A stretch of 64,000 bases of DNA from Amoebophrya sp. A120 (GCA_905178155.1 CAJINV010000003.1:618720-682719), one strand, 5' to 3'. Positions 1-64,000 are shown, counted from the first letter of the stretch. The notes: a model not told the origin generated them from the sequence alone. Numbers and translations are program-made.

Positions 1-6167
<6,167 letters not shown>

Positions 6168-10692: not shown

Positions 10693-13600
10693 ATGGCGGG
10701 AAACTATCCCTTGGTTCACTTTTTCTCTCTTCAGAACGGCTCCGGTGATGATGCTTCGTTGCTCACCGCTGCTCGCCTCAGTTCTTCTGTTGTTTACGAT
10801 CCGCCAGGAGCGGAGGCCGCTGCGGGCCGGAATATAGCAGGCAGTGCGAATGAAGGTACAATACGCGGAGTAGGAGGGCCGCGACATCGTGGAGCTTCTA
10901 GTAGCTCTGACTCCCTCGTGGAGAGGAAAATTGCGTCGAAAAGCCCGGGGTTCGAACCATCAACGCCGGCGCCGTTCACTCCCGCGTCGCGATTAGAGGA
11001 ACATGCTCAGGTGGGTGCAGCAGCGGCAGCAGCGAGTGATTCAACCGCAACGTCATCGAAAAAAAACTCTCCTCCGGGGCGAAATGAAGAGCGTGTACTT
11101 CTGCCGCCGCCAGAGGTGGACCAACTGGTGGCTAAGGCAACAGATAAAAATCCACATTTGGAACATCATGTTGCTGATGAAGACGATGAAGATGCTGAGC
11201 CGCCTGCGCTTGGCTCCGGCAACATCCACGACATCCCCGGTGATGTCGCGCAGAGACAAGACTTCAAGGAGCGAGCGCTTTTGGCGGCCGAGACTGCGTT
11301 TTTCGACAACTGCTTCGACGGGACCGCGGGCGCGCTGAAGCGAGTGATTGGCCAAGAGCTCGGCTACCCTCCGTCGGTCATCCAGCTGCGTGTCATACCA
11401 AAAGAGGATGAGAGTTTCTTGCTGGGCGGGTCCAACAATCAACATGACGATGATGGTGATACTAGCTTCCTTTTACCCCCAGATGAAGAAGTTCCGGACT
11501 TCGACGAGGACGTCTCGCCCGCCGTTTCCAGGCAGGTGACGGAGAACAACGCAGCACACCTGGGCAGCAGCTCTGTCGTGGTGGAAAACAACGCGAGCGC
11601 GCTCGACCAAATTGAAGGGGTGACCTTCTGTGACGTTTATTGCACCGTCCCGTCATTACCGCGGACGATCGCAGACCAAGCCAAGTGCGACAGGCTGCAA
11701 TCTGAAGTCATCAGAAAGATCCTTTTGGCGGTACAGGGTGTCGTGGAGAATGAGGAGAAGAGGGAGACTTCTAAAATAAATGCCAACGATCATATTAACG
11801 GAACAACAAGAGGAGATGCTCAACCTGATGATCCCGATGTCGCAAGAACATCTTCAACAGGAGAAACAGTACGACTCCTACCGCGCACTGCTTCCACACC
11901 TTCATCCGCTGCGGCACCAGCCGGTGACGATGAACAACCCACACTGGACAGCATCGTTGTGGACTTGAAGGTGAAAATCCGTGTGTGGACGTGCACGTTT
12001 CAGTACGGGATCGTGTCGCCCGCCCACTTTACCGGTCCATTGCAGGAACTCCAGGACATCGAGCGCCTGGGGCCGGTGGTCTGCGAAGAGTGGGTCGCCC
12101 TGGCCCACTACCGTGACCATAAGGATTTCGAGTCGAGCTTCTTCAACTTTCTGTGCCTCAAGTACTTTCGCGATCTGGCCCTCGCGTTGGTACGACACCC
12201 GAAAACGGACCCCGCGCTGTTGACGTTCGATTTGGCGCAGCTCCCCGCTTTCGAAAAGTTGGTCGTCGATCTGAATGACGAGATCTACTTCGGTACCTTG
12301 AAGAACTACTGTCCGGAGTTTGTGAGCAGTCCGCTGGGTGCTGCCTACCTGTGCGGCAGCGACGAGTTGGTCTTAGAGTTGCTGGCGAAAAAGCAATGCG
12401 ACTACTGTACGCCCGACGCAAACAGCGCCAACGCGGCGAATGAAGAACTGGTGGCGACACGGTTGCGAACACTGCTGATACAGTTCAAACGCTTACTGAT
12501 CGAAATTCAAGCAAGGTATGACTTCGAGCAGCTGCAGAAAGAGCGGCTTGCAGTTGCGAGCAGCCCCCTGTCTCGCACGTCGAGCGCACCGGGAGCAGAA
12601 CGTCAGGACGTCGACAAGTTGTCATCAATAAATCACGGAACAACAACAGATAAAAATGCAACTGGAATTCCTGCGGGTGCGGTCTTGAGCAAGGCACGAC
12701 GCACATCCTCTGTGCCAGCATCGTCCTCCTCTGCAGGAGCTTCTACGGGCAGCAGCCCCGGTCGTCGCAGAGAAGCGTTGCAAGCAATGGCTTTAACAAG
12801 CACTGCCGGTGCAGCTGCAGCAGCAGCCGTCAATTACGACGGCACAGAAGTTGTAGACCACCCACCGTCTGCTTCGTACGGATTTGTCCACGACGATTTG
12901 CGGTCCGCGGAGGACGTGCTCTACCCAGAGCGCGCGTCGGGAATTGTCATTTTGAAGCAGGACACCGTGATCCAGCAGTTCGTTCGCGAAGTCGGCGTGC
13001 CCGTGCTCTTTCACGACGCCGCACTTCTGGAACTTCAGACCGCCTGGGTGCACCGGGAAATCATGCCCGGAGACTTTTTAGAAGCAGGAAAAACAGTTAC
13101 TGGCGGGAAAAATGGGGACGTAAAAACTACGTCAGGAGACAATGAATCTGTCTTCGCGAAGGCCTGCGAAGCTACTACAAACGGGTTGAACAACCAATTA
13201 CGGACCGTCAATGCGTCACTCGCCACCAAGCGGTTCGGCGAAGCTCCGGGTAGTTGTTCGGAGTGGTTTACCGAGAATTTTCTCGGGGATCCAAGGGCCT
13301 CGTCCGAGTACGTGATCGGCTCCGACGTGGTAAACAGCACGGACACGCTGGCGGACCCGTTCACCGACCGCAGTTTCTACACGGATTCCAAGGAGTGCTC
13401 CATGCTGGAAATGGCCATGAGCGAGCTCCGAGTGAATGTTGTCTTGGCGCTGCTGGTATGGATTGCAAATGTGTCTGGGTCTGGAAGATTGCAACTTGTC
13501 ATGCTAAATCCGAATCATGCAAAAAGAAAAATCTGTGTTGCATGAGTGCCAAAAGCTATCCACTTTCGACCAAGTTGGGAGGGAGTTTCTCACGCAGGAT

Positions 13601-15473
13601 AGGCATGACAGAGACCTCACAGAGTCTTTCATACTAGGTCCCGCATTCCAAACCGCAGGGGTCAGGGAAATCCTGCATGACAAGTTTACAGTCTTCCAGA
13701 CCCAGACATATTTGCAGTTGATAGCTGGCCCGGCCGGACCTGAACTCCGCGCTGATTACCAGCTCCGTGTTATCAAATGCAAATACGTCTGGGTCTGGAA
13801 GAATGCAACTTGTGATGCTGCATTTGGATTCCAAGAAAATCTGTATTGCATGAGTAGCAAAGGGAGCGCGTTTTTTGCTACGCCCAGAGGGCATTTGTCA
13901 TGCGGAATAGGCATCAAGAAGCCCTCAAAAAATCTGTGATGCTAGGGCGTGCATCACGGACATCATGGCTCATGCAAAACGTGCGTGACAAGTCTCAGAA
14001 TGTTTCAGACCCAGACAGATTTGCATTTGATAAGTGTACGAGAAGGCACTTTCCTACGCCTTAGATCGCGGCTTCGGGATTCAATCGCGGTCCTCCTTCA
14101 GTTACAACGCAGCTGCGCGACGGGAAAACGCCGACGGTCTGGACGCCCGAAGCGACACGCGCGTAGCCGCCAGCGCCGTTCTGAACCTCTTCCCACCACG
14201 GGGGTTCGATCTCTGGCAGAGCATTTGTGCGTTATTTCAGATGAAAATCAGGGAAGCGACGATGCGTGTCACCACTGTCACAGAGGACGTCCTCGAGACG
14301 GGGCAGTGGTGCGACGAGGTCGTGGGTACAAGGACTTCTACCGGTGGCGCCGCGAATGGCAAGAGCAATGCTCGTTTTGGGCATGATCAACAAGAAGAAG
14401 ACGAAGCAGTTGAAGTAGAAGTTGCATCTTCATCACCAGTAAAAAGAACAGGTGAAGAACGCAAAATAAATGCAGCAGCTGCGGCCGGCGCCGACGCAGA
14501 TGACTCTCCAACTACTGAACGCCAAACATCCACCACACGACGCCCAGGAGCAAGTAGGAGATTTTTACATAAGCGGGTCCACAAGTGGTACCAGTTTGAA
14601 CTGAAATCGATCGAGGCGGAGTCGCGCTCCGTGGCAAAGTACGACGAAGAAGTGCTTACGGCAATCGAGACCTACATGGGCATGGGGATTTACTCGGACA
14701 CCTACAACACTTCTTGCCTGGACCGCCGGGTGTTTACCGACGCCGCGTTGCGCTGCTTGAAACAGGAGTACTACAAGTGGAAGCGGGAACAGCGGCCGAA
14801 ACACATTCTCGGCCTGCACTGTATGGAAGCGTCAGGTTTGAAATCGACAAAATTATTGAAACTGTCATGCATAAGATGCAAGGCATGAAGTGCCTGTCTT
14901 GCCGGGATGGCAAGCAAGGCCGATTGTGAGCCTGTTTAGGGTTTGAGATAGAGCTGTTAAAGTAGCATGACAAAAGCAGTCTTCTGTGCCCAAACAGCAT
15001 GACAAATTGGATTCCGGTGCTCGGAAAATTTGTCATGCGCCCCCTGATAAGTGGGCTTTCGACTGGTATCGGTTTTATGCATGGCAAACTATCTCAACTT
15101 TGACGATGTCGATTCTGACACTCCCATACACTGCTGCGGCGTGCAGTGGAAGAACCTGCGCTGTGAACTCGTCGAGAGGCAAGTAGTTTCGACGGTAGTT
15201 GCCGCGCCGGTTGAGCATATGCATTGCAAAAGTATCGTACTAGTATGAATTGCATTACAAATTCACTTAGCATTACAAATTGAATTTGTAATGCGGATCT
15301 GCCTCGATAAAAAGATTTGTAGATGCATAAACGCAATTAGTACGAGTGCGATACTTTTGCACAGGAAAGAGCAGGCGGGTGGACAGAAGAAGAAGCAGCA
15401 AGCGGAGTCGCTGGCGCAGCAGCGGAAATACCAGACGGAGCTGCGAGACGTCATGGAGGGCTACTGGGGCTGA
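10693..15473 (+). CDS. Large hypothetical protein with 4 introners in the 3' part
   Basis: 950-aa ORF joins the 14034 ORF and the C-terminus ...LRDVMEGYWG* in frame after removing elements at 13457, 13771, 14822 and 15218; no domain recognised. Confidence 0.75.
13457..13723. mobile_element. Introner, family D (267 bp), TSD GCTGG
   Basis: tatggattgcaaatgtgtctgggtctggaaga / tcttccagacccagacatatttgcagttgata. Confidence 0.92.
13771..14032. mobile_element. Introner, family D (262 bp), TSD CGTGT/AGTGT
   Basis: tatcaaatgcaaatacgtctgggtctgg / tcagacccagacagatttgcatttgata; removal gives TSSV-YEKAL. Confidence 0.9.
14822..15128. mobile_element. Introner, family C (307 bp), TSD CACTG
   Basis: tatggaagcgtcagg...ctgacactcccata; interior homologous to 3687-3997. 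Confidence 0.9.
15218..15368. mobile_element. Introner, family A (151 bp), TSD GAGCA
   Basis: tatgcattgcaaaagtatcgtact...atacttttgcacaggaaa (3' end AAA rather than ATA). Confidence 0.9.
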
Positions 15474-16053
15474 GGAATCTTGAATCTTCAGAACTTGTGA
15501 TGTGGTACCCGAACCCGGTTTGTGTATGTGCATGGCGAGACTTATCTCTGCGAGCGCGCTTCCACCAGAACAAAACGAAATAAAAGTGAAAGCTCTTTGT
15601 TCTTCAGGTTGACAACTGTTGTTGTTGAGTTCATGAGCACGGAGATTTTTGCAATCATTCTTTTTTGGCTTCGAATTTGAAAAAGGAGAAACACCTTTGC
15701 CGCGATGACGGCACATCATGCACTCGTAATTTTTCGTTGCCCATTGTTCCCTCCGCATCCGCTCTAAAATAAATAGTTTGATTCCTGCTACCAGCACCGG
15801 AATGTTGTACTAACTGCCAGTTACAAGAGCTCTCTGTTGTTACCAACGATGTGCCGTTCTGAGGCTTTGCATTTTGAAGATCCAAAACTTGTTCTCGCGA
15901 CACTACATAGGGTGTATAGCAGCTAAGGTCGTCAACGCCAAACGGCGAAGGTGAAGAGAATGATGATGAAACCGCGGTTTCTTCGCAGAGAATAAAGATC
16001 CTGATACACGCGGCGCGACCTCGCGGCACTGATACTGAAGAAGATCATTAGAT

Positions 16054-18176
16054 ATGATGCGCTTCGACGACTTTTTTGTCGTTGCGCTGCTCTTCCATAG
16101 TCGGTCTTTTACTTTTTGCCCGCCGTGCCATGCATTCGATCCTCTACTCGACGGGAAAATCAAAACTGCCGCCACACCAAGTCAAAAGGCACCGACACCC
16201 GCAACCGCGATAGGAGCCGGGACCGATGCTGCTGGGACTTCTGTCCCAGCAGCTGCATCTTCCGGCAGAATAGACAGGGACGAAGGCCGCGAGAGGGACG
16301 ATCCATATCCGGATGATGGAAAACCGACCCCGCACCGCAAGCGACGCATCAACAGGACGGCAGTGGCCCAACAAGGCGCTACTTCTACTGGGGTAACATC
16401 AACCGCGGTTGCCTCCGATGGTACGATGGAGAGAAGTACTGGTACTGGTACTGGTGCTGTTGACATCAATGCGACATCGTCAGCTTCTGGTACTATCGCG
16501 CCGAACTCTGGTATAGTGTCCGAAAGCAAGCGAAAGGTTTTGTCCTCGCAAGACCCCGACCTGACACGCAAGGTGATTGAGGGGATTGGCCCGGAGAACT
16601 CGTTGTACCACGTTCAGCCGATCTATTACGAAAGGGACGACCACCTGGACGGCTGGACGTTCCCGGACTTTGCCACCATTCATCGCAAGCTGTACGGCGT
16701 AAGCCACAAGGAGAAACACGTCGTGGTGGAGTACTCGAACCCGTACAACATGTCTCCGACCTTTGGGAAGTTTCCGCACAGCAACCTGCAGCCGGATTTC
16801 TTCATCAGCAAGATCCTGGACCGGCTGCACCCCAGGGAGCCCAAATTCATTGTTGAGGTGAATGTGAAACAAAAAATAATTTATCCTGTTGTTCCCATGT
16901 CAATGAATCTTAATCTATGCGTGAAATCCGCATCTACAAGCAAAAAAATCGAACTGTTCTACTTCCTCTCTTGCGGATATTTTACACAAAACCTCGCTTC
17001 TCCTGCTCAGGTTGGTTCTTTCCAGGGCCACAGTGCTGTTTTGATGGGGTCGATCTTGGATGCGATCGGGCTCGCGGAGGTGCCCATTCTGTGTATCGAC
17101 CCGTGGACGGGAGACCTAAATACGTGGGCCATATCAAATGCAAAAATGTCTGGGTCTGGAAGAGTGCGCGACTTGTCATGCTCCTTTTCCATGACCCATG
17201 AGGACTGGAATGCAGGATCTAGCATGACAGATTCTGCGAGACCTTTCTCATGCCTATCCTGCATGAGAAACTCCCTCTCGACTTGGTCAAAACTGGACGA
17301 CTTTTGGTAATCATGCAACACAGATTTTTACATGCTGCAGATTTAGCATGACAAGTTGCAATCTTCCAGACCCAGACACTTTTACATTTGATAGGCCAAC
17401 AAGGACCACGATGTGGAGGTGCAGCACTGGATGTCTCCCGTCCGGGACGGGCGGTTTCTATGCACTGCAAAAGTATCGTACTCGTATGAATGCATTACAA
17501 ATTTCCTCAGCATGAGAAATGAAATTTGTAATGCGGATTGATCTTAAGAAAAGGATTAGTAATGCAAGACTTGCATTATTTTTATACGAATGCGATACTT
17601 TTGCACAGGATAGTTTCTCCTGTTCGACCATTTTATGACGAACGTGCAGTTCAAGATCTCCCGCCACCTCTCCCCGCTGCACATCCTGCCCTTCCACGCC
17701 ACGAGCATGGTCGGCGGGCGGTTCCTGAAGGCGATGAAGTGGCACCCGGACGTGATCTTCCTCGACAGCAGTCACGAGGCGCACGAGACCTTACTCGAGC
17801 TAAAATTGTACTACGAGGTGCTGGCGCCGGGCGGCATTTTGTTCGGGGACGATTTCAGTTGGCCGGGGGTGAAGAACGACGTGCTCACCTTCGTCGCGGA
17901 GATGGGCTGGGGGCGCGATCCGGAGCGCATATTCGACTTCGAAATTCTGCCCGCAACCACCTCCTCCGGCGGCTCGGTTTATCCTGTGCAAAAGTATCGT
18001 ACTCGTAGTAATTGCAGGCATGCATTACAAATGCAAATCTCGTTCCCAAGGCAAATCAGCATGACAAATTGCATTTGTCATGCTGAGGGAATTTGTCATG
18101 CAATTTATACTAGTACGATACTTTTGCAGTTCATACAGTTCTGCTCTGGTTGATACACAAAGCCAAATACGTGTAG
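16054..18176 (+). CDS. Class I SAM-dependent methyltransferase (Methyltransf_24-like) with hydrophobic N-terminus; GT-AG intron 16858-17010 and 3 introners
   Basis: IVEVGSFQGHSA, LCIDPW, DVIFLDSSH, LAPGGILFGDDF motifs; reconstructed C-terminus GGSVLLWLIHKAKYV*. Confidence 0.85.
17132..17393. mobile_element. Introner, family D (262 bp), reverse orientation relative to 13457, TSD GGCCA
   Basis: Interior is the reverse complement of 13457-13723; removal gives TWA-NKDH. Confidence 0.92.
17459..17612. mobile_element. Introner, family A (154 bp), TSD GTTTC
   Basis: Family A termini; removal gives GRF-LLFDHFM. Confidence 0.92.
17980..18135. mobile_element. Introner, family A (156 bp), reverse orientation, TSD CGGTT/CAGTT
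   Basis: Begins tatcctgtgcaaaagtatcgtact, the reverse complement of the usual 3' end. Confidence 0.9.
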
Positions 18177-19008
18177 GTCGTGTAGTTGTGGTCTGCGTTC
18201 GACGCGCTGTTCTTCATCTCCTTTGCTCGCCTTTTTTGCAGCGAGATTGCCTGTTCCATCAGATCGGTGACGGGCGGAGTCCCGTTTCTTTCTAGGTCAT
18301 CGAAGTCTCCGCATGCCGTTGCAGTAGCCTTGTCCACTTATCGCTTCGGCGGGGCTTTCTAGTCGCGAACTAAACTCTTTGATTTGATAGAATTAGCACA
18401 AATCGAGCTACATTGCTTCTCGAATGATGGTAGACCACAACATGCCTGCTTGATGCGTTGTTGATCACAGGCGCTGAATGTTCTGGTTTTCTGTGCGACG
18501 ACTGCTAGTATAGAGGGTATGTTGAGGGATGATTTTTTTATTTTGATTTTGAAGACGGGGACGAGCGATTATTTATATTTAATACTCGGATACAACTCCA
18601 CGACGTCGGCCTTAAGACGATATAGATTGTGGATTTGCTTTTATGGTGGTTACGCTTGCGAAACAGAGCGGCGGGCCGCGATCTTCTTCGATTGCAAGGT
18701 CATCAACATGACCACAGATCGATGTTGACATTTTTACTGCACCAGTCGCTTTGCTGTGGTAGGCACAAATGGATAAATAATGAAATTTCCAAAGCTGTCG
18801 AAGTGTGGCTCATAGAAATTGTCAAATGTGATCACGATCACGATCATGTGTAACAATACCGATCTCCAAGATGAAGATTTCATCTTCTGTGTAACAATAT
18901 TGTAAATTATCGCTCCCTCGTCGGGCTACGTGTTTCACGTGCAGTGCGGAAAGTCCGTTTTACCGTCTTCGGGAGCGCAGTGGAGGCCTACGACTACGCA
19001 GCACGACC

Positions 19009-21829
19009 ATGTCAGTCAAGGGTGACAACAGACCTCAGGGCGTGAGGACCACTGCCGTCGACGAGAACAATGTAACTGGATCTAGATCGGCGGTCTCTAG
19101 AAAGACCGAGTTTGCCAGCACGGCTAGCGCTGCGACAACCGCTACCGGTGGCGAACAAGATTGCTCTTCATCGGTAAACCGATTCAGCAGCGATGCGGGT
19201 ACTACAGCGGGAAGAGATTATTCCAGGCACAGCACGACCACCTCGCGTGAAGAAGATTCTAATGAGGATGCCTTTTCCTCTGCAAGTTCATCTGCGAAGA
19301 CGACAACCGCGGAGGAACAGGCGCAGGTGTGGCGCATCTTTTGCGTGTTCTCTTTCTACTACGGGGTGGCGGGCAGTTACGACCTGGGTGCGGTGACTGC
19401 TACCTTGTCCGACATTTTGCAAGACCTGCACGTGGACAATCTCACGCTGGCAGGCGTTCTGGGCAGCGTCGGCTACTACGGCATGTTCATGACCATGCCG
19501 TTCTTCGGCGTGATCTTCTCGAAAATGCAGGCGAGGCAGGGGAAACTCCGGCTCTCGCTGCATGCCGCCTACAGGAGGGCGACGACGACGACGTCTTCAT
19601 CAGCCGTCTCTCCGCACGGCGGCGCGACGGCGACGACGCTCACAGCACCGCTCTTGGAGATCTCTCAACAAGCGAACAAGAACAACCCGAAAAATAATGC
19701 CAGTGCGAGCAAAAGCAGCAGGAGCGAACCAGAGCTTGATATTATTGCCTGGTCCTTCCTCGATTCGGTGGTTGCGCGGGGCCAGTGGCTCTTTTTCATC
19801 CTGGACTGGACGCTGTTGGGCCTAGCCGTTTTGCTGCCCATGTGTCTAGCGACAGACATCCGGATGATGCTGGTAGGACGATTTCTGCTTGGGACCTTTC
19901 AGGGCGCCGTCGACGTCTACTACCCAGTTTGGATTGAAGAACGCGCCCCGCCGTGCTCCCGTACCGTCTGGCAGGCGTCTCGCTTCGTCTGCATTCTGTG
20001 CGGCGTGATTTTGGGTTACATCGTCGGGGGCGCTCTCGTGTCCTCGTCGTCCAAGCAGGTGGAGAGTGGTGGTAGTACAACCGCGACGATGACGCACGAC
20101 GAGAAATTTCACTACACCTGGCGGTTAGCGTTGGCCGTCGAGGGCATCGCTTCGTTCGTCGCTGCGGCGCTGCTTTTCATCCTGGTAGACCCGGCGGTCA
20201 TGCGACTACGAGGAGAGGAGAACAATCCCGCGACCGGCGCACAACCGTTAGAAGCGGAGGTCGTGGCGTCCTCTCCCAATCCAGCAGGTCCCGCCGGCAT
20301 TTCGGGGAACGCAAGAATCCGTATTGATAGTACGACTACAAAAAGAGGAGGCAATGGGCAGGCGTACGAAAGCCTCGGCATCGGCGTGCAAAGCACGGCA
20401 ACCGAAGTAGGTGGTGCAGGACCCCCAGTAGGTGTTGTTGCTTCTGCCTCGCGACCATTCGCAACTGCAAGCGAAGATAAGACACGAGTAGATCACGAGC
20501 GCACCACCGTAATAACTGCTGCTACAATCGCTGAAGCAAAAGATCAAGATCAGCAGGATAAGGACTCCGGAACAGCAAGCGATGTGGACTACACCGTCCG
20601 AGACTTTACGGTAATGGAAAGTCTCCGTGTGCTCGCGACGAACTTGAACTACGCGATTCCGGTTTTGAACCTCTCCTGCGTCTTCCTGGTCGCCCAAGGC
20701 GTGCAATTTTGGAGTCCACAATATCTGCGGTTGGTTTTCCACCCCATTTCCGAGGGCGTCATCGTCGGCTCCACCATCGTGCTACTCCTCACCGGACCAG
20801 CCGCGGGAATCTTTCTGGGTGGGAAATTTATCGACATGTGCGGTAAGAGTATAGTTTCGTGGCACGGAATCGGAATTGTTTTTACAACGTGGACCACGAA
20901 CGAAAAACTCAAAAATATTGGCTCGCTACTCTGTTACAGGGTTCCACTTAGCAGGGCGTCATGCAACCACCCACTAGCTACGGCTATTCAATGCATGACC
21001 TCTAAAAACCGCGAGAGAATGAGAAACAAGTATGGGGTCGTCCTCTACTAAGATCTTTTGAACCTCCTTCTATACGCATACGCTTTAGTACATAGAACGC
21101 ACGTAGTTGAAGAAATTCGAACTCAACATTGCAGGTGGCTACCACGGTCGAGCCGGAAGAATCCGCACCTACAAGATTCTCCTCGGCTTTTCCTTCTTGA
21201 GCACGATCGCGGGGACGGTCGGTAACTGGATGCACGGGGAAGCGGAGTACGCACCCGCCGCGTGTTTTTTGTGGATCGTGTTTGCCGTCGGCGCCGCGAG
21301 CGTGGGTCCCCTGCAGGGCATCGCCATCAGTGCCATTCCCTACCCCGAACTCCGCACGTTTGGTAACTCGTTGGCGACCGTGAGCTTCATGGTTGGCGCC
21401 TCCATCGGGCCGCTGATTCCAGGCTTCCTGCTTCAGTCGCTCTGCCCGCCAGAAGGAGCGGTCAAGAACATCAACATGGGACAAAGTACAGCTCCAGGTA
21501 GAAGGGCTGGAGTAGAGGACCTTGTGGCGGTGCAAACTGCAGCTGGTGTAGAAACGATACAACCAAGAGTCTTTACATCGTCATTCGGAGAAGACGGCAC
21601 AACATCTGTCAACCAAAGCCAGATCGCGCACCTGTCAGAGCTGCAGCCTACTTCCGGTGGCACGACAAGCCTCCACCCACTGATAACAACGCTCTGTGCG
21701 CAGGAATCCGTCGCGCCGTTGCTCTGCAGCGGATACTTTTTCCTGTTCACTACGGGATTGTGTCTGTGGCATGAGGTCAGCCGCCCAAAACACGCCAAGG
21801 TGAAAACCTCCAAGGAGGTTGACCTGTAG
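19009..21829 (+). CDS. MFS transporter, Spinster-like; GT-AG intron 20843-21134
   Basis: Multiple TM segments; YDLGAVTA, GRFLLGTFQG...PVWIEERAP..RTVW, G.FLGGKFIDMC|GGY. Confidence 0.85.
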
Positions 21830-21884
21830 GCACTAGTTTTAGTTTATTTGAAGGACCTAATATTAATATCCTTGTAAAAAATTC

Positions 21885-22135
21885 TATTGGAGTGTCAGGA
21901 TCGAAATTTTCAAAATCGAAAAAAAAAATTGAGGTGCCTTAATTACATACCACAAATAGCTTGCATGCAAATAGTGTATCTTGGGTGTTTAACTAGCTAG
22001 CTCAAAACTGCGCCCGCGGATGCGTCCGCATCCGCGCTAAATAGATATGTCAATTGTGAGATGCATCTTCTATATAAAACACCCTACCTAGTTTTTTTTT
22101 TCGATTTTGAAAATTTCGATCCTGACGCTTCCATA
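21885..22135. mobile_element. Family-C-like TIR element (251 bp) downstream of the MFS stop codon, TSD AATTC
   Basis: tattggagtgtcaggatcgaaattttcaaaatcgaaaaaaaa / ttttttttcgattttgaaaatttcgatcctgacgcttccata. Confidence 0.88.
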
Positions 22136-22460
22136 AATTCTATCATTTCGGCAACAGCATCAGAGGCACGTGGAGGGGGCCGTCGTGGTCATTTATCTCC
22201 AACTGTTTCTGTGACTAAAACAATATTTTTCACACTGACAATGGTATGCGTGGTCAAGTTTTAGCTCATGAATAGCTCCAGCTCCACTCCTAAAGTTCTG
22301 GAACGCCACCCCGCAGCCAAGCCAGGCCACGACACTCTGACTCTGATTCTGGAAGACAACAGTGCCACTAAGGTTTTAGATGCTGTTGCGTCTTGAGGTT
22401 CAGGAAGTTTAAATTTGCGAGGATTCGCCTTTTAACTTTATCTTTATAACGGTTGATTTT

Positions 22461-23422
22461 TTACAGCTTGGACGGACGTTAGGAATTCAGTCGGTGACTT
22501 TCAGGTGACTGCCGAGCAATATGAATTTCTGGCACCCCCCCCAGCGCCGACCTTTGTGCTAGGTCTCAGCGCCTGCGTCGATGCTTCTTTCGCCCGTCCT
22601 TTCTCAGCCAGTGAAGGTCGCTGCTCTGACTGTAAGTAGTCAGAGTCGCGAGGAGGATGGGCCGGCTAGCCCTGACCTTTTGATGTAGAGGCAAAGCCTC
22701 TGCCACAGCCTCAATGGATGCAGTTATGAAGCCTGGAGTCGTCACAAAGATGCTGGCTCCAGGCTGTTGCGCGTGCAATCAGGGGTCCACTGTGGCAGCT
22801 ACCAAGCCTATTTCCGGGCCATTTGGACAGATATCAAGCGGGGGTGGGGGGGAATCGAGGCAACTTTTTGGGTTGGTGACACGAGTGGTGACGCGGGCCG
22901 GTGACACGGAGCCAAAAAAATCGCCAATTTGGTGTCACCACGACCTGTGACAGCCGATGGCGACTCCAGAAATCGTCTCGGTGACAGCCGACTTGTGCTC
23001 CGTGTCACCGGGCTCGATTTTGAGCCCGGTGACACCAAGAGTGCCGCCGTGTTTAGCTCTCAAACTTGGCCGAAATTATTGGAATCTCGGAAATTCTGAC
23101 ACTTTGGCGAATTTTTTGCCAAAAAGTCAGCTTTTTCCCGGATTCCAAAAAAGCAGGAAATTGTCAAGGTGGTGGACTTGATAGGGTGGTGGCTGTGGGC
23201 GTGCCTAGGGCACAAACACACTGTAGACTGTTTAAATCTGCCCAAATGTGTGAGCTGTCTGGCGCCGCGTTTGGCCCCCCTGCGCCGGGCAACCGGCCGA
23301 AAAGAAAACGACGCCAATCCCTCCACCCGAAGCCTCTCTATTGGCGATCCTTTCTGCGGCAAACTGCTCGCGTGTCACCAGAAAGTCTCTACCCATGTTT
23401 CTGACGGGTGTCCAAGTCCATA
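22461..23422. mobile_element. Intergenic MITE-like element related to 3122-3651 (right end degenerate)
   Basis: Starts ttacagcttggacggacgttag; many GGTGAC/GTCACC motifs; ttctgacgggtgtccaag near 23400-23416; no clean TSD found. Confidence 0.55.
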
Positions 23423-24071
23423 TTGGTTTTGTGGCTTCCAACTTCTACGAGCATAGGCATACTGATCATCGACATTCATCTTCTTCTATTCGTGTGCCGG
23501 CAAAAATTAATGGAAATTTAATATAGAGTTTAAAGGCGATGGCGAAAATGAGAGAATCGCCCATGAAGATTACCAATAAGGCATGTTCATGATCTTATTT
23601 GTTATAGCTAACTGCCATTTACACTTGAATGTGATGGCGCATAGGTATAACTGAGTTCTTACTTTGTGATGGGGTCCTAGCTAAAATATAGTGGTGGATA
23701 TAGTTGCATGGGCATGGCATAAGACTCTGTGCGACAACGCGCGATGCTGGTGGTGCGCCACAAGAAATTGGAACTTGAGACTGATCCGATTCCAATCTTC
23801 CACTAGCTCAAAATCGCTAGGAGTAGAAGGCGCGCAACTCATAGCATTAGCAATCAGGCACGTGGCAACATGTGCTACATCTAGAAGATATGTTATGAAT
23901 TGTATTTCCTGTCGTTGTCGCAGGCACGACAGCGTCAGTGGCAGCAGAAGTTTTGCGGCAGTAGCTGATGTCGTGTCTCTGTGTTTATTGAGCTATCAAT
24001 CATGTTTGATGTATGAAGATGATGTCTGAGCTCGTGCTTCAGCTTCACTCGATTTCTCGGCAAAATACGGA

Positions 24072-24932
24072 ATGCGCATCTGTAATGATGATCAGTATGA
24101 GCATCGTCATCTTCGTGAGCTGCACGCCCTAATCAGAAATGATCACGACCATGGTTCATCGCATTGGAGGTATGAAGAAATCAAAGCCCTGTGGCGCTAT
24201 CGGTTTCGGTTGCATTTACGGACCACAAAGGTGAGGATGTTTCGGTGTGGCCGCGTCCTGGGCGGCCGGAGGAGTCGGCTCCTTTGTTTGTGCCGTGCTC
24301 GTTTATTTGTTTTTTTTGCTTTACTGGCACCGTTGCCGTTCTGGACCAGCAGCCGTCGAGTGGTGCGTCGCGAGGACCAAGAGCGTCAAGAGTCTCAATC
24401 GACGACGTCGAGCGCGTCGGCACAGGTCGGCGTGGGAGATTTCGATGTAGACGCGGGCGCGTTAACGACGCTGGTGCGCCCTGCGGAACAGGCTGCACGG
24501 CTCGATGTACATCACGGAGAGCACCCTCCCGACAACGACGATGCTCGAGAGCGCGACGCAGCTGCCCCTCGCTTTACCCATGCGCCCCCATCTGAGCAGC
24601 TGGAGGACCACTCTGATTCTCCACAACAGGGCGGGGCTCCCGCGGCCCTCGAAAATAGCACAGCCCCGAAGACGAGTGGAGATCACGACCATGTGCACGA
24701 GGAAGTAAACAAAAACAAGAAGGCGGCTGAAAATGAACGAGAAGGAGCTAGCGCTGTTTTTCATTGCTGCCCCACCCCGGCAGAAGAAAAAAAAAACAAA
24801 CTTCTGATCAATGACTCAGGCCTGCCGCAAAACAGATTGATACAGGAGCCTCACCAGGGCGGTGCTGTGGGTGTGGCTAGCGACCACCTGAAGCGGAGCC
24901 CCGACGGTCCCTCACCCTCGGGAAATTCGTGA
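24072..24932 (+). CDS. Hypothetical protein (possible signal anchor; start may be ATG 24237)
   Basis: 286-aa ORF with one hydrophobic segment followed by low-complexity sequence. Confidence 0.4.
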   Translation: MRICNDDQYEHRHLRELHALIRNDHDHGSSHWRYEEIKALWRYRFRLHLRTTKVRMFRCGRVLGGRRSRLLCLCRARLFVFFALLAPLPFWTSSRRVVRREDQERQESQSTTSSASAQVGVGDFDVDAGALTTLVRPAEQAARLDVHHGEHPPDNDDARERDAAAPRFTHAPPSEQLEDHSDSPQQGGAPAALENSTAPKTSGDHDHVHEEVNKNKKAAENEREGASAVFHCCPTPAEEKKNKLLINDSGLPQNRLIQEPHQGGAVGVASDHLKRSPDGPSPSGNS

Positions 24933-25812
24933 CGCAAGGATGTTATCTTGCGATGCACATAAACGCGGATGTCCAGGCGGGTCGCGGCCCGACGCCTGGA
25001 TGATGATCAGCATAAACATCGCTAATCAGATGAGATGATCAGCACCATAGGATAGCTCAACTTCTTAGGTTGTTGTATTCCACGCCATGACGTACTATCG
25101 GTTTCGGTTACACATCAATCTTCGTTCAAATGATGGCGTTGGTGCAACTGCAACTTGTTGCTCATCTTGTCGCAGAATTATTCAATCGGGGCAATTATAC
25201 ATCTGTCGGTTCTGGTGGACGATGAAGATCATTGTCGGTATCCATCTAATGCGCTGCGCAAGTCGCATTACCTCAGGAACAAGGATGATAGTTATGACAA
25301 TAAGGGAGTTCGTCGAGGACTTCGGTATTAAAACCAAAAGACGAACAACAAAGCGCTGGCTACAAGGCGGAAGGCCGACGCCTCCTTTTGACGTGGGGAG
25401 ACACAACTATGCTCATCAACATTGTATGCTTATGCAGCATTCTTCACATAATACTAGTCATTAGCATAGAGTAGTTGTAGGCGGCCGTCGCACTTTTGCC
25501 GTACTGGTTTCTACGACTACGCCTATGAAAGAATATGCAATAAAAAAGTGTATTCTGACTTTTCCAGCAGCGGTCGTTCGAAAGTGAAGCTAAATCTTGA
25601 CCTTGAGGCTCAGTGCCCACGTACACCCTGTAGTTTTTGTCTTAGTTTCCGATGCCAGATGCTGATGCGGAGCTGTCGTAATTACTACCAAGGCTTGCGC
25701 TTGGAGTTTCAAGTCCAGCTCGCGAAAATAAACATTCTCTACTTGTACGACGTTCTTGTATAATGGATCGTTTGCAGCAGGAGGACGAGGAGGTTCGCCA
25801 TTATCTACAAAA

Positions 25813-27743
25813 ATGACGACCTTATCACGTAGTGTGTTGCCTCCGCGCCTATATTCCTGTGTGGCACTCGATAGGAACAACGATCGTGGCGACACGACGC
25901 AACTCGTCGAGGAGCACAGTGGTTTTTTGGGATGGGTAGACGGAGCGACGAAAAAACTGAGTGATGGACGCACATTACGTGTTTGTGCTGTTTCGAAACC
26001 GTTGCCCGAGGAAGACTTTCCCATGCGAACTTGTTCCGAGGAGGAAGAAGGTGGAATTATTATGCGAGCAGGAGGCGAGGCGAACGAGGACGAGAGAGTA
26101 GTCGAGGTGTTCGCAGACGTCCCGTGCCCGATACCACTCTTGGAGGTTGTTCACGAAGATAAGACAAGCGCCTCGATTTCCAAGGACCAGGACCACTACC
26201 GTTCCTCGTCGTTCGGGCCAGCACCTGATGATCCCCGCTTGCAGCTGCGTAATTATCTGCAGTACAACGACTTCTACCGCGATGATCTCCTACTACCACC
26301 AGCACACATTTTCCTTCACCGTGTGGGCTTTCTCAACCTAGGAAATCAATCAAGTCGGCTGCACATCGATACCCTGGACAACGAGGCTCTGGGACAAGTG
26401 AATCGCATCAAAAGCGCGCTGCGACAGCGCGCCGCGGCCACGGCAAGTCACACTATAATTACTACTTCGAACAGCGGTATTTACTTTGCAGAGGTGGCAT
26501 CACGAGAAAGCAACAGGTTTGATGCCCGATTAATCACCGGAATTCCGATTGATACGCGACAAATGATCAAGGCAGATTTTGTTCAACTGCCAGAGCGAGG
26601 GCCAGAGGCACCAGTAGCAGGGCCAGACCCAGAAAGTGCAGGCTCCAGTGCTGCTGCAAACCAGGAACACGTCCAGTTCTCCGCTGTGCGACAAGCCGCA
26701 CAGGCCGGGCCTTGGGTTGGCACGGTGGTGAATCAGTTACTGATGCCGACTAGTTATGACGGGTGTGGTACGTCGCAGTTTGCGGCGGGCTCATCCACTG
26801 TACAAACTGCAGGTTCTTTGTTCAGCGGTCGAGTTTCTTGTGACGTTTCGGTATTGTACATGGCTAATTGCGGCGACCAGGCATGGCACGCAGATGGCCC
26901 GCATATCGGTCGCAGCTGTACCTGTAGTGCTGTCGCTGACCACTCAGCGGTAGAAAAGCCACATCATGATCATGGAATAAATGGTGATGTGCACGACCAG
27001 AACGAGCAAGTTGTTCCTATTGCTGAAGACGACCACCACGAGTACGACAGCGATACCCAGGAGCAGGACCCGGAACTAGACCAGAATCTCCCTCTGAGTC
27101 GGAATCATGAAGAGAAAGAACCTCAACAACACGACATATTACGGACCAGCTCGCCGCTGTTTCGCGAGAATGACGACCATAGCCCCGCGTATGGCCTCTG
27201 CGTGTTTCTGGCACTCACCGACAACGAGCCGGGGATGGGAGGAACGGAATTTTGGCCCGGGTCGCACAAGCACCCAGGGCTGCTAGGCTTGGGACCCTTG
27301 GGGCCGCTCGTGGAAGCCACTGTTACGACGAAAAATGCTCGGCGGGGCGACTTATTCAAGAAAAAAACACCATCACAATCACTTTTGCACATTTTTGCAA
27401 TACAAAAATTTTTGTCATGCGCAAAAATGCATCACAGTCAAGCTCAACAAGACTTGTAGGCGATTTCCCTTTTGTGTTTTTGCAATACAAAAATTTGTCA
27501 CGCGAGACAAATTTCTGATGCAAAACCTCCTAAGTGTGATTGTGATGGTGTTTTTTTCTTGGATAAGACTGTGTCCTCTACGATTACAGGCTCCTCCACC
27601 GCGGCCTTGCCAACGAAACGCCGAAAGAGCGACGAATGTTGCAATTCTTCTACTACCGGAGCGATCTATACCGAGAGGTGCGGAATTACGGCACGCAGAG
27701 CCTTTTCGAGTCCGAAACCATAACCAGCACAGATGAGTTGTAG
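25813..27743 (+). CDS. Phytanoyl-CoA dioxygenase (PhyH)-family Fe(II)/2OG dioxygenase
   Basis: QAWHADG (HxD), VFLALTD..GGTEFWPGSH; after introner removal GD-CVLYDYRLLHRGLAN....RRMLQFFY. Confidence 0.85.
27353..27565. mobile_element. Introner (213 bp), TSD CGACT/AGACT
   Basis: tattcaagaaaaaaacaccatcacaatcac / gtgattgtgatggtgtttttttcttggata. Confidence 0.92.
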
Positions 27744-29210
27744 TTTTGTGTCAAATCAATGAACCCATGCTTTAGCTTTCTTTGTTGCAGTCACTGTCAC
27801 AGTTACTGACAGGCACAGCAGAAGCCGCCCGAGTCAACACCCATTCCTGACTTAGCATTTGTTATATGGTTATTTCCTGTAGTTTCGCATGACATTCTTA
27901 TTCACATAAAAAAGTTTCCTTATCATCGATCACGTTAATAACGAGCACGAAGTGGAAGAGCCACTAACGTGGTAGAGTCATTGATAAGCACGAGGACCGT
28001 GCCAGCTTATTCCATTCATCATGAGAACAAGATTTCATAATTGCGTTTCTCTTTCTTGTCGCGAGAAAAAATATGTTTCTGGTTCAACTGACGAAAGTGT
28101 GATCAGTAAACCCGGGTTTTACTGATCCTGATCGCTGTTCAGCAAACTACAAACGAAAATGTGAGGGTCGTAGGATAAGCTGCTCCTCATCGTTGGATTG
28201 ATGTGAGCAGGGAAGAGCAGTCGCACTCACGTGTCAATTTCGTGCGGTGATATCAAAATCCGGGGGAAACGATGCACGTGCTGTGTGGGTGTGGTATCTC
28301 GTGTGTCGTCGCGTATTGTATAGTCAATTTCAAGAAGAAGAATGTCTTGGCCAAGGGGACGCAATTATCGTAGGTTTAGGTTTACGCGGCTCCTATTATT
28401 TCAGAAGATCGTGATGAAGGCAGATACGCAAATAGATTTTTGCGAAGCAATGTGTTGTGAAGATGAATACGCATTCGTACTGTCGGTGCTAGGGGGCTCC
28501 TTCGCAATTATGTGGAACAATGGGTCGTCGTGAAGCCAGGTGTTGAGCCTGAATGTGGTTCTCAACAACTAGAATCAATCATTTCGATCGGTCTTGTTGA
28601 TAGCGTCCATTGTTGTAGTACTCTTCAGGACTGAAAAAGATATTGAAGTCGAGAACTTAGGAGCATGCGCTGGGGGCTGCGAAAAAATCTAACTTGGCTT
28701 AATATTGATTGTTCCCGTTGGTTTGTAGTTGCACATGCGCGTAGTTGTCTTTCCGTCGTGAGAAAATATCGACAAAAAATGCTATGTAGTAGCGTGAGTC
28801 CCAGAAGTCGATTGATATTCGGGATGAGTGGGAGCAGGACCACCTTGAAAAAGTATTCTAGCGCGTGGTTCTGATCGGCCTCAGAGAGAGAGACTAAAGA
28901 TGGCGCCTCTTCTGTCCTGTTTCTGTCGAACATCCAGCGCTTGTTGTTTGCCGAGACGGAACGCGAATACAAATAGAGATGACCACCACGACGCCGGTCT
29001 TGTTTGATGAAGACAGCGAGGACCTCCTGGACAACTTTATTTAGTACCACGACTACAACAGCCGGATTTTTCGGATATCTTCTATCTTGCAGCGGTGGCT
29101 CGAGCCCGGAAATAAAATATTCGCAAATAAAAGCATGTGCTTCGGAGCGAAGTTCGGAAACAACAACTTCCGGGGCCAGATGCCGATGATAGTAGTGTAC
29201 GAAGCACCGG

Positions 29211-29419
29211 TATACAAGAAAAAAACTGTGTTAGTGTAACTTTTCTTGGTCGACAGCATCACAAATTTGCTCTACATGACAGCGAAAATCTGTCATGCGT
29301 GGCTTGTAAGGGAAAACACACGCGAAAAGAGGACTTCATGGTTGTCTGGCATGGCAGGTGTCACTGTGTTGCATGTTCTGCATTACAAAGTTACACTTAT
29401 ACAGTTTTTTTCTTGCATT
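29211..29419. mobile_element. Introner-like element (209 bp), TSD ACCGG/ACAGG; host gene unclear
   Basis: tatacaagaaaaaaactgtgttagtgtaactt / aagttacacttatacagttttttttcttgcatt-like end; internal GCATNACAA motifs. Confidence 0.8.
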
Positions 29420-30439
29420 ACAGGAAGACGGCGGTCGAAAGACGATTCTGCATGACGGAAAGCAGTGGTTTCAGGCACAGTACGATGCGATCGCAAATCG
29501 ACACGGCCGCCAACGAATATCGCAGTAGCATTGGCTCCGGTCGTGGAGGTGCTGCTCTTCATCTGAAGTCTCTCGGCGCCACCACGACCTCCACCTGAGG
29601 CTTCTTTTGCTCACATCATGATGAAAAAAAAACTGAGTCGATGATTTTCTGTAATTATCACACCATCAAGAACACCGCTACGAGAAAGGATGTTGAGAAA
29701 AGCACGGAACGATGTAAAAATGACGATGGATAACTTTTGCAGCATGCTTTTCTTGTTGCATTTGCTCTACCGCTATAAAGAAGTTTTTGAATAGATTCAA
29801 CCTGACCAGGGCGCAATGGAGACTCAGATTGTCAATGGCAGCAACACATGTTGGTATCGGACTCGTTCAGATTTCGATCGTTGAAGCAAGAGTTTGGCGT
29901 CGGCACGTGTTGTCTCTACTTATTTCAGACAGATCTCATCTTCATGAGCCAAGACGCAGGCAGGATCAAGATCAGCCTGAAGATCTCGTCGTTTGCAAAG
30001 GTTCTCTTTTATTTCACTCGATGAACACAAGCCGAGCGATATCGTGTTCATGAAGATTGTCTTCAATGCTATCTTCTTCATCACCGATTATAGTTGATCA
30101 CTTTGTATTGATGTTCGTGCTGGTCGTGACATTGTCCTGTTTTCGTAAAAATACCGATCTACCTGCTTCCGTTGTTTGTTTTGGAAAAAGGAAGGAGAAT
30201 GTCATTGTGTGAGGAGCGTCTTGGCCATCACTGCTCCTGATAATTCATGCCGCGAATTTAGGCTGGTGCAGTTGCGTTTTGTTTATACGATATACGATTT
30301 TTGTACCTCCTCCGCAGCGAATTATTACAACATTCTTTGAGATGAGCTAGTACATTATGGCGGCGCATCAGTTGTACGCTACTTGAAGGAACAAGCAAAT
30401 CAAAAGACAAACCGAAAAAATAAATACTGACCCATCAAC

Positions 30440-33400
30440 ATGTCGTTGTTGTTTGCATGGGGCAGCGGCGAGATGGGACAGTTGGGTGTTCCCCGCCCTG
30501 AAACTTCTACAGGGTCGTCGCATCCCTCCCACCCGCCTTTCGAGCCGTTCCCGACGCGTGTGTGGTGGAGGCAGGATGACTATGCACGAGACGTTGGACG
30601 AGCAGACGGTAGTACTAGCGCTGAACATCCTGCTCACCCCAACGCCAACATCAAGGTGCTCCGAAATCAACACCGGCACGCTTATTCCCCCGCGCACCCC
30701 ACCGTGAAGCAGCTCGCGGGCGGCGACGGACACAGCCTTCTGCTGACCACCCAGGGCGAGATGTACAGCTGGGGTGCCTGTGCCTGCGGCCAGCTGGGAC
30801 TGCCGGATCTCTCCGCCCTGCCCAAGGACCTGGAAGATTACCCGTTCCTGCCTCTTCCCTGCCGGATTCCCATGCCGACGTCGTCCAGAGCAGACCTGCG
30901 GATCGTGAAGATTGCGTGCGGGGACGCCCACAGTTGCGCGATCAGCGACGCGGGAGAGCTTTTCACATGGGGCGGCGGCGGCTGCGGGCAACTCGGACTA
31001 AAAACTGGGGGATTGAGCAAGGACGAGGACGGCTGTGCCTACCAGCCTATCCCCCGCCGCGTAGATTTCGATGGCTCTGCCGTTATTTCTGGGGGAACTA
31101 GTACTGGCGCTGGTGGTGATGGTGTAGTCAACGTCAACGACGAGATGAACTACAATGCTGCACATCAGTCAATAGGTACTTCTGAAGATGTAGGATCTTC
31201 TTCGTCATCAACGTTTCGAGCAGCAAACCACGACCACCGCACCAACGCGCCAATCAGAATCGTTGCCGTGGCTTGCGGAAAGGCCCACACCGTGTGTGTC
31301 TCGGCGTCCCACGAGGTGTACGCATTCGGGGCTGGGGCCTGCGGGCAGTTGGGGGTGGAAAACCTGACTTCCTATCCCCACGATGACGATGGCTATCCCT
31401 ACCAGCCGCTGCCGGTGAAGCTAGATTTCTTTGACGGAACAGCTGTTCGACCAGCATCAGCGAATGCTTCATCGTCTGATGTACTACTAGCGGAGCGTAG
31501 CCGCGGAGGCGATCATGAGGAGCAAACTGGAGATAAGTGCTGCGAAAGAAATATCGGTGTCGTAAAGGATGCCTGTGACATCGCCGCGGGTGACACACAC
31601 ACGGTCGTATTGACGGAGAGCGGTTTGGTATACGCGTTCGGCGCTGCCAGCTATGGTCAGCTCGGAATTGGTCCCCTGGATCAACTGAGTGAAGACCGCT
31701 TAGAGAACGAGTTTCAGACGGTATCCTGTGCAAAAGTATCGTACTCGTAGTAATTCCAGTCATGCATATTTACAGGTGAGAAAGTCAGCATTACAAAATC
31801 CATTATTTTCTTTTCGAAAAATTTCACCTTGTAATGCAATTTATACTAGTACGATACTTTTTCACTGCAGAGACGGACTCCGACGGCATTTTGTTCACCG
31901 CGGTACCGCAGCTAGTGAAATTCGACAACCTCACGTCTAGTTCATCTTGTTCGCCAGTCTACAGCTGTTCCTCCGTCGGGGAGCAGCAGGGAAACAAGAA
32001 GCCACGGCAGCGCAATATGCCTGTCCAAAGCCGAACTTTCTCCTCATCCAGTGGTGATTCAGTATCAACCAAGGCGCCATTATCTTCTTCTACTTCCGCA
32101 TTTGGTTGTAAGCCACCGCCTGTGCTGTTTTCCGATAACAAGCATAAGCACGGCCACGGAGTAGCTTCCGGGAGGTCGAATTTGAATGCTTCGTCAACCG
32201 CGGAGGAGCTGCACATGCCACGAATTTGCGCTGTGTCGTGTGGCGACTCCCACACGCTTTTTGTGACTCCACAGGGAGACGTTTTCGCGTGCGGTGCGAA
32301 CCAGTGTGGCCAGTGCGGAATCAATCCAAATCCGCCGCCATCAGCGCTCGGGCGCGGTGGGGGGCGCAGAAGTGGCGGCCCGTTGCGCGGTGGAACAGGC
32401 ACGGCATCCGATGAAAAAAGAATCTCATCATCAAGAACCGCCTCGAGCGCTCTCGGACGAGGAGCAGGCAATTCTAATTCAAACGACAATCGTTTGCAGC
32501 TCGTGCTGGCTCCAAATGCAGGAGCTTCTTCATCCAGAAGTGCATCAGCCTCGAATAGCAAGCACCTTCTGTTTGCTCCCGCGCAAATCCAGGCACTACA
32601 GCGCGAGGTAATCGTTCAGGCCTGTGGAGGAGAGCAGCATTCCCTGGTGTTGACGCAAAGCGGCGACGCGTATAGCTTTGGTGCAAACGGGAGTAGTATA
32701 ACAGCTCTCACTCCTTGCCCTGCTGCCAACGGAGGGATGATAGGGAATCAGGGACATAGTGGTGGTATCGCAGCAGGAGGTGGAGGAGCTGCTTCATCCT
32801 CTTCACACTACCTTCCACCGGGAAGAGGAAGCGCTGGCGGGGGACCACTGGTGAACAATACGGGCAATGCAGGAGGTGTAGTCACTGCTGGTAATGGCAA
32901 TCCCGCCGGAGGTGGAGCAGGACCCCGGGGAGGGACATCAATCGGAGGAACGGGACGGCAGCAGCAACAGCACACGACCACCTCGTCTTCCCTGTATAAT
33001 CACCTCTCGATTTCTGCGACCCTGGATCACCTGGCAGCAACCACCACCAATGGAAGTAGTAGGAACATCAACGGGCTGAACAATCCTTCGTCCGCAAGCT
33101 GCTCGCCCACCTCGTCCAGTCTCGCATCTTCCCCGACCATTGGTGGCGCAGGAACTTCGTCCGGCGCGACAGCAGCCGGAGTTGCAACCGGCGTCCCGTG
33201 GCGTCCGGTGCTGGTGCGGGATGGCTTCTTCGGACACACTGTGACCGTGATTGCCTGCGGGGGCGTGCACAACCTAGCTGCGTGCGAAAGCGTCATGAGC
33301 AGGACAGCACACGAGGCGCGCTCCTTCGAGGAGCTACTAAACAACTCGCGTTTTGCAGATCTAGAGCTCGTGGTTATCGAGGAGGGCAGGAAAACGAACA

Positions 33401-63430: not shown

Positions 63431-63589
63431 CTATCGCCGGGGGGGAGCATTAGTCGACTGGCAAACAACTGCTGGCCCCAAACATGAGCACCCACCTGAG
63501 AACCTGCGCCCAAACCTCAACAAACCGGCCCGGACCCAACCCCCTGCCCCACCCCCCTCGCCCCTGGGCGAATCCCTCGCGCGCCATTA

Positions 63590-63848
63590 AAGCAAACACC
63601 AAAAGCAAAGCGCCGAAAGCAAAGCGCCAAAAGCAAAGCGCCAAAAGCAGAGCGGCAAAAGCAGAGCGGCAAAAAGCAAAGCGGCACAAAGCAAAGCGCC
63701 AAAAGCAAAGCGCCAAAAGCAGAGCGGCAAAAGCAGAGCGGCAAAAAGCAAAGCGGCACAAAGCAAAGCGGCAAAAAGCAAAGCGGCAAAAAGCAAAGCG
63801 GCAAAAAGCAAAGCGCCAAAAGCAAAGCGCCAAAAGGAAAGCGCCAAA
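63590..63848. repeat. 14-16-bp minisatellite (AAAAGCAAAGCGSC)n
   Basis: About 18 tandem variant units, including an internal higher-order duplication. Confidence 0.95.
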
Positions 63849-63862
63849 TGCGAAAAAGGCAA

Positions 63863-64000
63863 GGCAGGGCAGGGCAGGGCAGGGCAGGGCAGGGCAGGGC
63901 AGGGCGAGGCGAGGCGAGGCGAGGCGAGGCGAGGCGAGGCGAGGCGAGGCGAGGCGAGGCGAGGCGAGGCGAGGCGAGGCGAGGCGAGGCGAGGCGAGGC
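63863..64000. repeat. Pentanucleotide satellite (GGCAG)n switching to (GGCGA)n, running off the window
   Basis: Directly visible. Confidence 0.97.

Follow-up and report, generated by a model that had tools for sequence, protein, structure and literature searches.

Introduction

How can one and the same intron-like insertion be removed from transcripts when its copies lie in either orientation relative to the gene, given that the donor, branch point, and acceptor of spliceosomal introns are directional? This question is raised by a stretch of 64,000 nucleotides (nt) from the genome of Amoebophrya sp. A120 (GCA_905178155.1 CAJINV010000003.1:618720-682719), which was analyzed at its full length and is referred to below as the window, and in which coding exons are interrupted by short repeated elements bounded by terminal inverted repeats. 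An earlier reading of this sequence, to which we refer as the original prediction, had proposed that such elements work both ways on a single coding strand, that this conflicts with the directionality of the spliceosome, and that the excision signal is symmetric, being formed by an inverted-repeat stem and a motif that reads in both directions. In our judgment the elements are probably miniature transposons with inverted repeats (MITEs), namely the introner elements of A120, which are inserted in either orientation in plus-strand exons and are likely removed together with one copy of a 5-nt flanking repeat by a process that reads a hairpin and not directional splice sites.

Both Orientations on One Coding Strand

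The orientation of the elements was called by repeat finding, by BLASTN searches of the window with four reference copies, and by all-against-all BLASTN among the elements. Aligned in this manner, the copies of a family match over their full length in one orientation, the other orientation giving only a 30-57 nt match of the terminal repeats. In family A (about 151-156 nt), five copies are forward (2273, 4106, 15218, 17459, and 41424) and two are reversed (17980 and 31722), just as had been proposed, and to this list we add a degenerate A-like copy at 47068-47219, which is also reversed. Family D (262-270 nt) has forward copies at 4325, 13457, and 13771 and a reversed one at 17132; that the copy at 17132 is the reverse complement of the one at 13457 is borne out by a minus-strand alignment of 261 nt at 81.6% identity (E 2e-69), against a plus-strand match of just 42-50 nt. 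Within family A, the copies at 15218 and 17980 give a minus-strand alignment of 154 nt at 80.5% (just 30 nt on the plus strand), and those at 17980 and 41424, likewise on the minus strand, one of 156 nt at 87%. Family C gives a weaker case, with 3687 and 14822 lying one way and 9430 the other (303 nt at 68%).

A single gene, which encodes the database protein P0001, holds a reversed D copy (17132), a forward A copy (17459), and a reversed A copy (17980), so that both orientations of family A do occur within one gene, as the original prediction had it. Its further claim that all hosts lie on the plus strand holds for the genes of P0001 and of a second database protein, P0123, and is supported for the remaining hosts by plus-strand frames and Pfam matches. 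The observation of both orientations is thus confirmed. The copies of families A and D, and one of family C, are listed below with their flanking repeats; X1 denotes a contig set that is considered in a later section.

2273..2423, plus strand: family A, forward; repeat TCGTG/TCGTG; a 156-nt removal fits P0123
4106..4256, plus strand: family A, forward; repeat GGTCC/TGTCC; a 156-nt removal fits P0123
4325..4594, plus strand: family D, forward; repeat GGGAA/GGGCA; a 275-nt removal fits P0123
13457..13723, plus strand: family D, forward; repeat GCTGG/GCTGG; frame continuous after removal; an X1 piece ends at 13451
13771..14032, plus strand: family D, forward; repeat CGTGT/AGTGT; an X1 contig piece begins at 14035
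14822..15128, plus strand: family C, same architecture; repeat CACTG/CACTG; an X1 contig piece ends at 14816
15218..15368, plus strand: family A, forward; repeat GAGCA/GAGCA; 3' end AAA, not ATA
17132..17393, minus strand: family D, reversed; repeat GGCCA/GGCCA; a 267-nt removal is needed for P0001; the A25 orthologue P0002 is colinear
17459..17612, plus strand: family A, forward; repeat GTTTC/GTTTC; a 159-nt removal is needed for P0001
17980..18135, minus strand: family A, reversed; repeat CGGTT/CAGTT; the C-terminus of P0001, also conserved in P0002, requires a 161-nt removal
31722..31871, minus strand: family A, reversed; repeat GACGG/GACGG; in the RCC1/BTB gene; a 155-nt removal opens the frame
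41424..41576, plus strand: family A, forward; repeat GACAC/AACAC; degenerate 3' end; frame open after removal
47068..47219, minus strand: degenerate A-like copy, reversed; repeat CTGCG/GTGCG; upstream of an anoctamin domain; 157-nt removal

Conceptual Removal of Both Orientations from a Single Gene

With its first exon, the gene at 16054 retrieves P0001, a protein of 460 amino acids (aa) that is named as belonging to Amoebophrya sp. A120 and is 100% identical over 268 aa, which identifies the genome. The organization of this gene is as follows.

16054..18182, plus strand: host gene, Methyltransf_24 protein of 460 aa (Pfam PF13578); the conceptual protein equals P0001
16054-16857, 17011-17131, 17399-17458, 17618-17979, and 18141-18182, plus strand: exons; stop codon TAG at 18180-18182
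16858..17010, plus strand: ordinary GT-AG intron; an X1 contig piece ends at 16855

When a conceptual mRNA is built from 16054-18182 by taking out the GT-AG intron and the three elements (17132, 17459, and 17980), each with one copy of its repeat, its translation matches P0001 residue for residue. P0002, the A25 orthologue, is colinear with this protein over all three element junctions and shares its C-terminus, SVLLWL.HKAKYV. Relatives of P0001 are encoded at five metagenomic loci, and two of these (L001 and L002) match query residues 204-423, a range that spans the first two junctions.

The same rule of removal holds for P0123 (1535 aa), which is 100% identical over 523 aa and threads onto the window: its introns equal the element length plus 5 nt in all six elements concerned (447, 2273, 2715, 3687, 4106, and 4325), and its gene has, in addition, another non-canonical intron and two of the GT-AG type. 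Altogether, the elements inside the two database proteins are exactly skipped in nine of nine cases. Conceptual excision of exactly the element plus 5 nt, forward or reversed, thus reproduces two A120 proteins and keeps colinearity with their homologues.

Beyond these two proteins the evidence comes from reading frames. Taking out the copies at 13457, 13771, 14822, and 15218 yields an open frame of 1259 codons, and a 157-nt removal at the reversed copy 47068 joins the frames 45080-47122 and 47202-50765 without a stop. In the RCC1/BTB gene (30431-38083), removal of the reversed A copy at 31722 together with the elements at 35694 and 37691 gives a frame of 2352 codons, with an RCC1 domain at its start and a BTB-like end, like its homologues; beyond the 31722 junction the frame stays open for a further 1272 codons. 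In a set of 60 homologues, this junction, which lies inside a repeated RCC1 motif, is spanned by 114 alignments, and the junction at 37691 by 42. The public gene model for this gene may be split or missing.

Apart from the elements, P0123 skips a 535-nt intron at 3121-3656, the borders of which are non-canonical (A|TTACAG...AAAGAC|G) and the ends of which are not TAT...ATA. The sequence at its 5' end (TTACAGCTTGGACGG) is found again at 22457-22512 and at 55142-55197, so that this intron represents another repeated family of non-canonical introns.

Terminal Architecture and Flanking Repeats

Counts of borders and repeats, here and in the following sections, refer to a set of 22 elements within the window. 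All copies start with TAT and end, save for a few degenerate exceptions, with ATA; terminal inverted repeats are present in every copy, with 16-23 of the 24 terminal nt complementary, and examples of the termini in the window (TATGCATTGCAAAAG, TATCAAATGCAAA, and TATGGATTGCAAAT) consist of the TAT start, seven less conserved nt, and then at least three A residues. A 5-nt direct repeat flanks all 22 elements, its two copies being identical in 14 and differing by one mismatch in 8. Lengths of 150-322 nt, inverted repeats, a 5-nt duplication, and families of 2-8 copies in 64 kb are all traits of MITEs. This architecture of an inverted repeat with an adjacent direct repeat is far from chance: a search for pairs of TA...TA inverted repeats (16 or more of 24 nt) found 65 pairs in the window, 20 of them adjoining a 5-nt repeat (at least 4 of 5 positions), versus a single repeat-bearing pair at an offset control position, and three shuffles gave 15-27 pairs, none of which had a repeat.

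The two ends of family A are distinguishable at positions 4-7, where one reads GCAT (TATGCAT) and the other CCTG (TATCCTG), and this difference persists whether a copy is forward or reversed; therefore, either version can be the 5' end in RNA. Both arrangements, with GCAT or with CCTG first, are absent from the conceptual mRNA.

With regard to the imperfect repeats, the mismatch falls at position 1 in six of the eight cases (4106, 9430, 13771, 27353, 41424, and 47068), for which a calculation by hand gives a binomial probability of about 0.001 for one given position. Such clustering could mean that the repeat has just 4 nt and adjoins a spacer, or that positions 2-5 are under constraint; direct repeats of 4 nt are reported to be the commonest in A120 (Farhat 2021, PMC7789003).

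Canonical Splice Sites in Either Orientation

One way for an element to function in both directions would be for each orientation to use spliceosomal GY-AG sites of its own, supplied by the target duplication or by the ends of the element, and two-way introners of precisely this kind, in Aureococcus and Polarella, are in print (Roy et al. 2020, 10.1101/2020.10.14.339549). Since a 5-nt repeat allows six border placements that give an identical mRNA, GT/GC...AG was checked in all six. Such a placement is possible in 1 of the 22 elements, the reversed D copy at 17132 (GC...AG), and the borders of the other 21 are non-canonical in every placement that would remove the element exactly.

Internal sites were likewise considered in the reversed A copies, in which GTGCAA lies close to the 5' end and TTTTGCAG close to the 3' end. 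At 17980, use of the internal GT...AG pair would leave 17 extra nt and shift the frame, giving a C-terminus unlike that of P0001 and P0002, and at 31722 it would leave 12 nt with an in-frame TAG. A further candidate, a U12-type 5' site, is suggested by the similar TATCCT at the end of the reversed A copies, but we reject it, since this sequence is absent in the forward copies and no minor spliceosome is reported in Farhat 2021 (PMC7789003).

Since a GY-AG reading exists for just 1 of the 22 elements, canonical sites are not what either orientation depends on. Independently acquired sites, the alternative that the original prediction itself had weighed, fail, and the internal pairs of family A produce a frameshift or a stop. 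We therefore treat the canonical-site alternative as excluded, the likelihood left to it being very small. The conflict with the directionality of the spliceosome that had been proposed is softened by the fact that A120 introns of this kind are non-canonical either way (Farhat 2021, PMC7789003).

RNA- and DNA-Derived Contigs

Two sequencing runs bear on the removal of the elements, X1, which is labelled just 'RNA?', and X5, which is DNA. X1 is taken to be RNA-derived because its contigs skip the GT-AG intron 20842-21133 that the X5 contigs carry. Among the X1 pieces listed, four end at 13451, 14035, 14816, and 21878, which are the element-plus-repeat borders of four forward copies, and a fifth ends at 16855, at the GT-AG intron of the P0001 gene. 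The evidence that the elements are absent from mature mRNA is thus indirect. Two raw RNA runs under this species label, X9 and X10, contribute 2 and 0 reads, respectively, over 13000-32000.

It is conceivable that the elements are lost without RNA splicing, either at the DNA level, in the manner of the internal eliminated sequences of ciliates, or by polymerase skipping between the repeats. The exact loss of an element and one duplication is the very outcome of precise transposon excision, and repeats in which position 1 differs and positions 2-5 are identical would suit slippage or microhomology. Against this, X5 contigs run from exon into element (15337-17154, 17586-18003, and 18109-21923) at a depth of 38-43, like that of the single-copy flanks, and element sequence is abundant in the RNA-derived X1; the position-1 mismatches, moreover, find a simpler reason in the prevalence of 4-nt repeats (Farhat 2021). 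We accordingly regard loss of this type as highly improbable.

Proposed Excision Signal and Mechanism

If removal by RNA processing through a hairpin is accepted as the probable reading, the features available to it are those that persist in the transcript of either strand. ViennaRNA predicts a basal stem in the sense RNA of 12 of 12 A and D copies, in both orientations, in which 19-29 of the first 30 nt pair with the 3' end, and whichever the orientation, UAU...AUA and UGCAAA/UUUGCA are kept at the two RNA ends. Because the ends of the element are inverted repeats, a transcript of either strand would start with UAU-N4-UGCAAA, end with UUUGCA-N4-AUA, and fold into the same basal stem. This stem would place the two copies of the flanking repeat side by side, and a machinery that cut at fixed distances from its base, adding up to 5 nt, would in consequence be orientation-blind. 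As to the identity of such a machinery, we give about equal weight to a U1-less spliceosome with relaxed borders, as has been suggested in print, and to a structure-specific endonuclease acting with a ligase, which might be envisaged by analogy with what is suspected for the nonconventional introns of euglenids.

Two-way removal of one family in a single gene, with GY-AG sites in neither orientation, narrows the signal to what the inverted repeat provides on both strands, namely the element ends, the basal stem, and the repeat that flanks them. It speaks against directional motifs of the interior, for instance a branch point or a one-strand pyrimidine tract. A signal made of the inverted repeat and the duplication, with an interior that has no directional part, would be the simplest account of two-way function, and a symmetric signal would likewise be the most economical reading of the data as a whole. 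The interpretation offered by the original prediction is in this respect partly supported: the annotated, conserved protein is obtained if copies of either orientation are taken out as element plus repeat, and canonical sites fail, but the role of the stem as the recognized signal is one that we infer.

A more specific proposal, which we put forward tentatively and consider rather unlikely, is that excision is orientation-blind and measured by structure, any RNA that has a terminal stem based on UAU...AUA and a 4-5 nt direct repeat at its flanks being cut at fixed distances from the stem base and religated, with no recognition of splice sites by a spliceosome. Were this true, a transposon landing in an exon in either direction would be neutral from the moment of insertion onward, and the clustering of mismatches at position 1 would imply a place in the signal for positions 2-5 of both repeat copies.

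Several results weigh against hairpin-guided removal of both orientations. At the level of structure, a test for selection on the stems in RNA gave a null result in this small sample (131 G-U-compatible versus 125 A-C-type mismatches), as did the comparison of strands, in which the sense fold is more stable than the antisense fold in 15 of 22 elements (Wilcoxon p 0.14), and the inverted repeats of a transposon would in any case give rise to stems, be these used by an RNA machinery or not. Comparison of proteins and mismatches does not place the exact cut positions within the flanking repeat, the mismatches at 4106, 4325, and 17980 being synonymous. At the level of expression, no RNA read or X1 contig piece crosses any reversed copy among the pieces listed, which concern forward copies only; P0001 and P0123 are gene models and not sequenced proteins; and no database protein was found for the RCC1/BTB gene that holds 31722 among proteins of 754-2150 aa, nor, with the third exon included, among those of 1139-3250 aa.

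The results on expression, together with an X1 depth of 0 over 30118-31385, would also fit a poor removal, or none at all, of the reversed copies, the gene models that leave them out then being computational and the insertions mildly or fully disabling. This explanation has to contend with the exact match to P0001, which needs two reversed copies to be taken out, with the C-terminus that P0001 and its A25 orthologue have in common beyond the reversed A copy, with the 1272 stop-free codons and homologue-like BTB end that lie past 31722, and with the fact that the published A120 annotation is built on introns supported by RNA sequencing (Farhat 2021, PMC7789003). On this balance we judge poor removal to be improbable. 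The support for removal of the reversed copies consists of the exact gene-model match, the colinearity of the orthologue, and the continuity of the frames, all of them read from conceptual transcripts, and hairpin-guided removal remains the probable reading on that basis.

Comparison with Known Systems

The introner elements of A120 have been described as having inverted repeats of 8-20 nt, with TAT, seven variable nt, and at least three A residues, and direct repeats of 3-5 nt that span the exon/intron borders, 5 bp being shown in Fig. S19 (Farhat 2021, BMC Biol 19:1, PMC7789003). According to this study, non-canonical introns exceed 60% and no U1 small nuclear RNA was found; it also proposes that hairpins join the exon borders, and it leaves the removal of tens of thousands of introns without a border consensus as an open question. 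The organism, the ends, the repeats, the non-canonical borders, the repeated families, and the hairpin model are all the same as those considered here, and no structural difference emerges from the comparison; the elements of the window are members of this published class. In its main and supplement text, the word 'orientation' is applied to genes only and 'strand' and 'sense' do not occur, although the figures could still show element orientation, and full-text searches gave no explicit statement on two-way introners in Amoebophrya. Two-way function is implied by the published hairpin model. The elements and that model being already in print, the point on orientation is a small corollary that appears to have been left unstated, and the elements are not of a new kind.

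Introners that occur in either orientation are described in Aureococcus anophagefferens and in Polarella glacialis (classes 6, 8, 10, 2, 7, and 3), two-way introners with canonical sites being already on record in other algae (Roy et al. 2020, 10.1101/2020.10.14.339549), and the method of Gozashti 2022 allowed for insertion in the opposite orientation. As in the window, one family with inverted ends and target duplications makes introns either way in these algae. Their introners rely, however, on GT/GC/GA...AG sites derived from the duplication or from an element end, and have duplications of 3-8 nt and an orientation bias (Roy et al. 2020), whereas GY-AG is available here in 1 of 22 elements and removal always comprises the element plus 5 nt.

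The nonconventional introns of euglenids (Milanowski 2014/2016) resemble the present elements in their non-canonical borders, in inverted ends that pair in RNA and join the borders, and in duplication-like repeats at the junctions (reviewed in PMC11282704; Nomura 2025, PMC12501133). They differ in that they belong to a different phylum, in that circular excised RNA is known for them, and in their signature, 5'-N3CDG...CH'G N5-6|R, which fits none of the 22 elements in any of the six placements.

A third parallel is offered by the introns of Fritillaria borealis. An AG-A(N) border is common to most of these introns, and it is the U2 spliceosome that processes them. The same is stated in Farhat 2021, and these MITE-derived introns (named in PMC11282704 and PMC7789003) are like those of A120 in that miniature transposons have given rise to non-canonical introns on a large scale; the elements of the window, unlike them, have no shared border dinucleotides.

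Other Features of the Window

The window is eukaryotic DNA of about 52% G+C, with long reading frames mostly on the plus strand. Pfam matches among the long plus-strand frames comprise an ACT domain, Methyltransf_24, MFS, RCC1, and anoctamin, and no transposase domain is present among the 22 long plus-strand reading frames of the window. The recognized genes of positions 1-64000 all lie on the plus strand, in agreement with the long co-oriented gene blocks reported in A120 (Farhat 2021, PMC7789003).

Two further repeat regions deserve mention. A cluster at 7056-8518, situated in a stretch without long reading frames, contains perfect palindromic cores of 22 nt (CAACAGTTGTCCGAGCGATTTT) in nested direct and inverted copies. 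From 63588 to 64000, tandem arrays of 14-15-nt units (AAAGCAAAGCGCC) are followed by GGGCA and GGCGA pentamer repeats, which continue to the end of the window.

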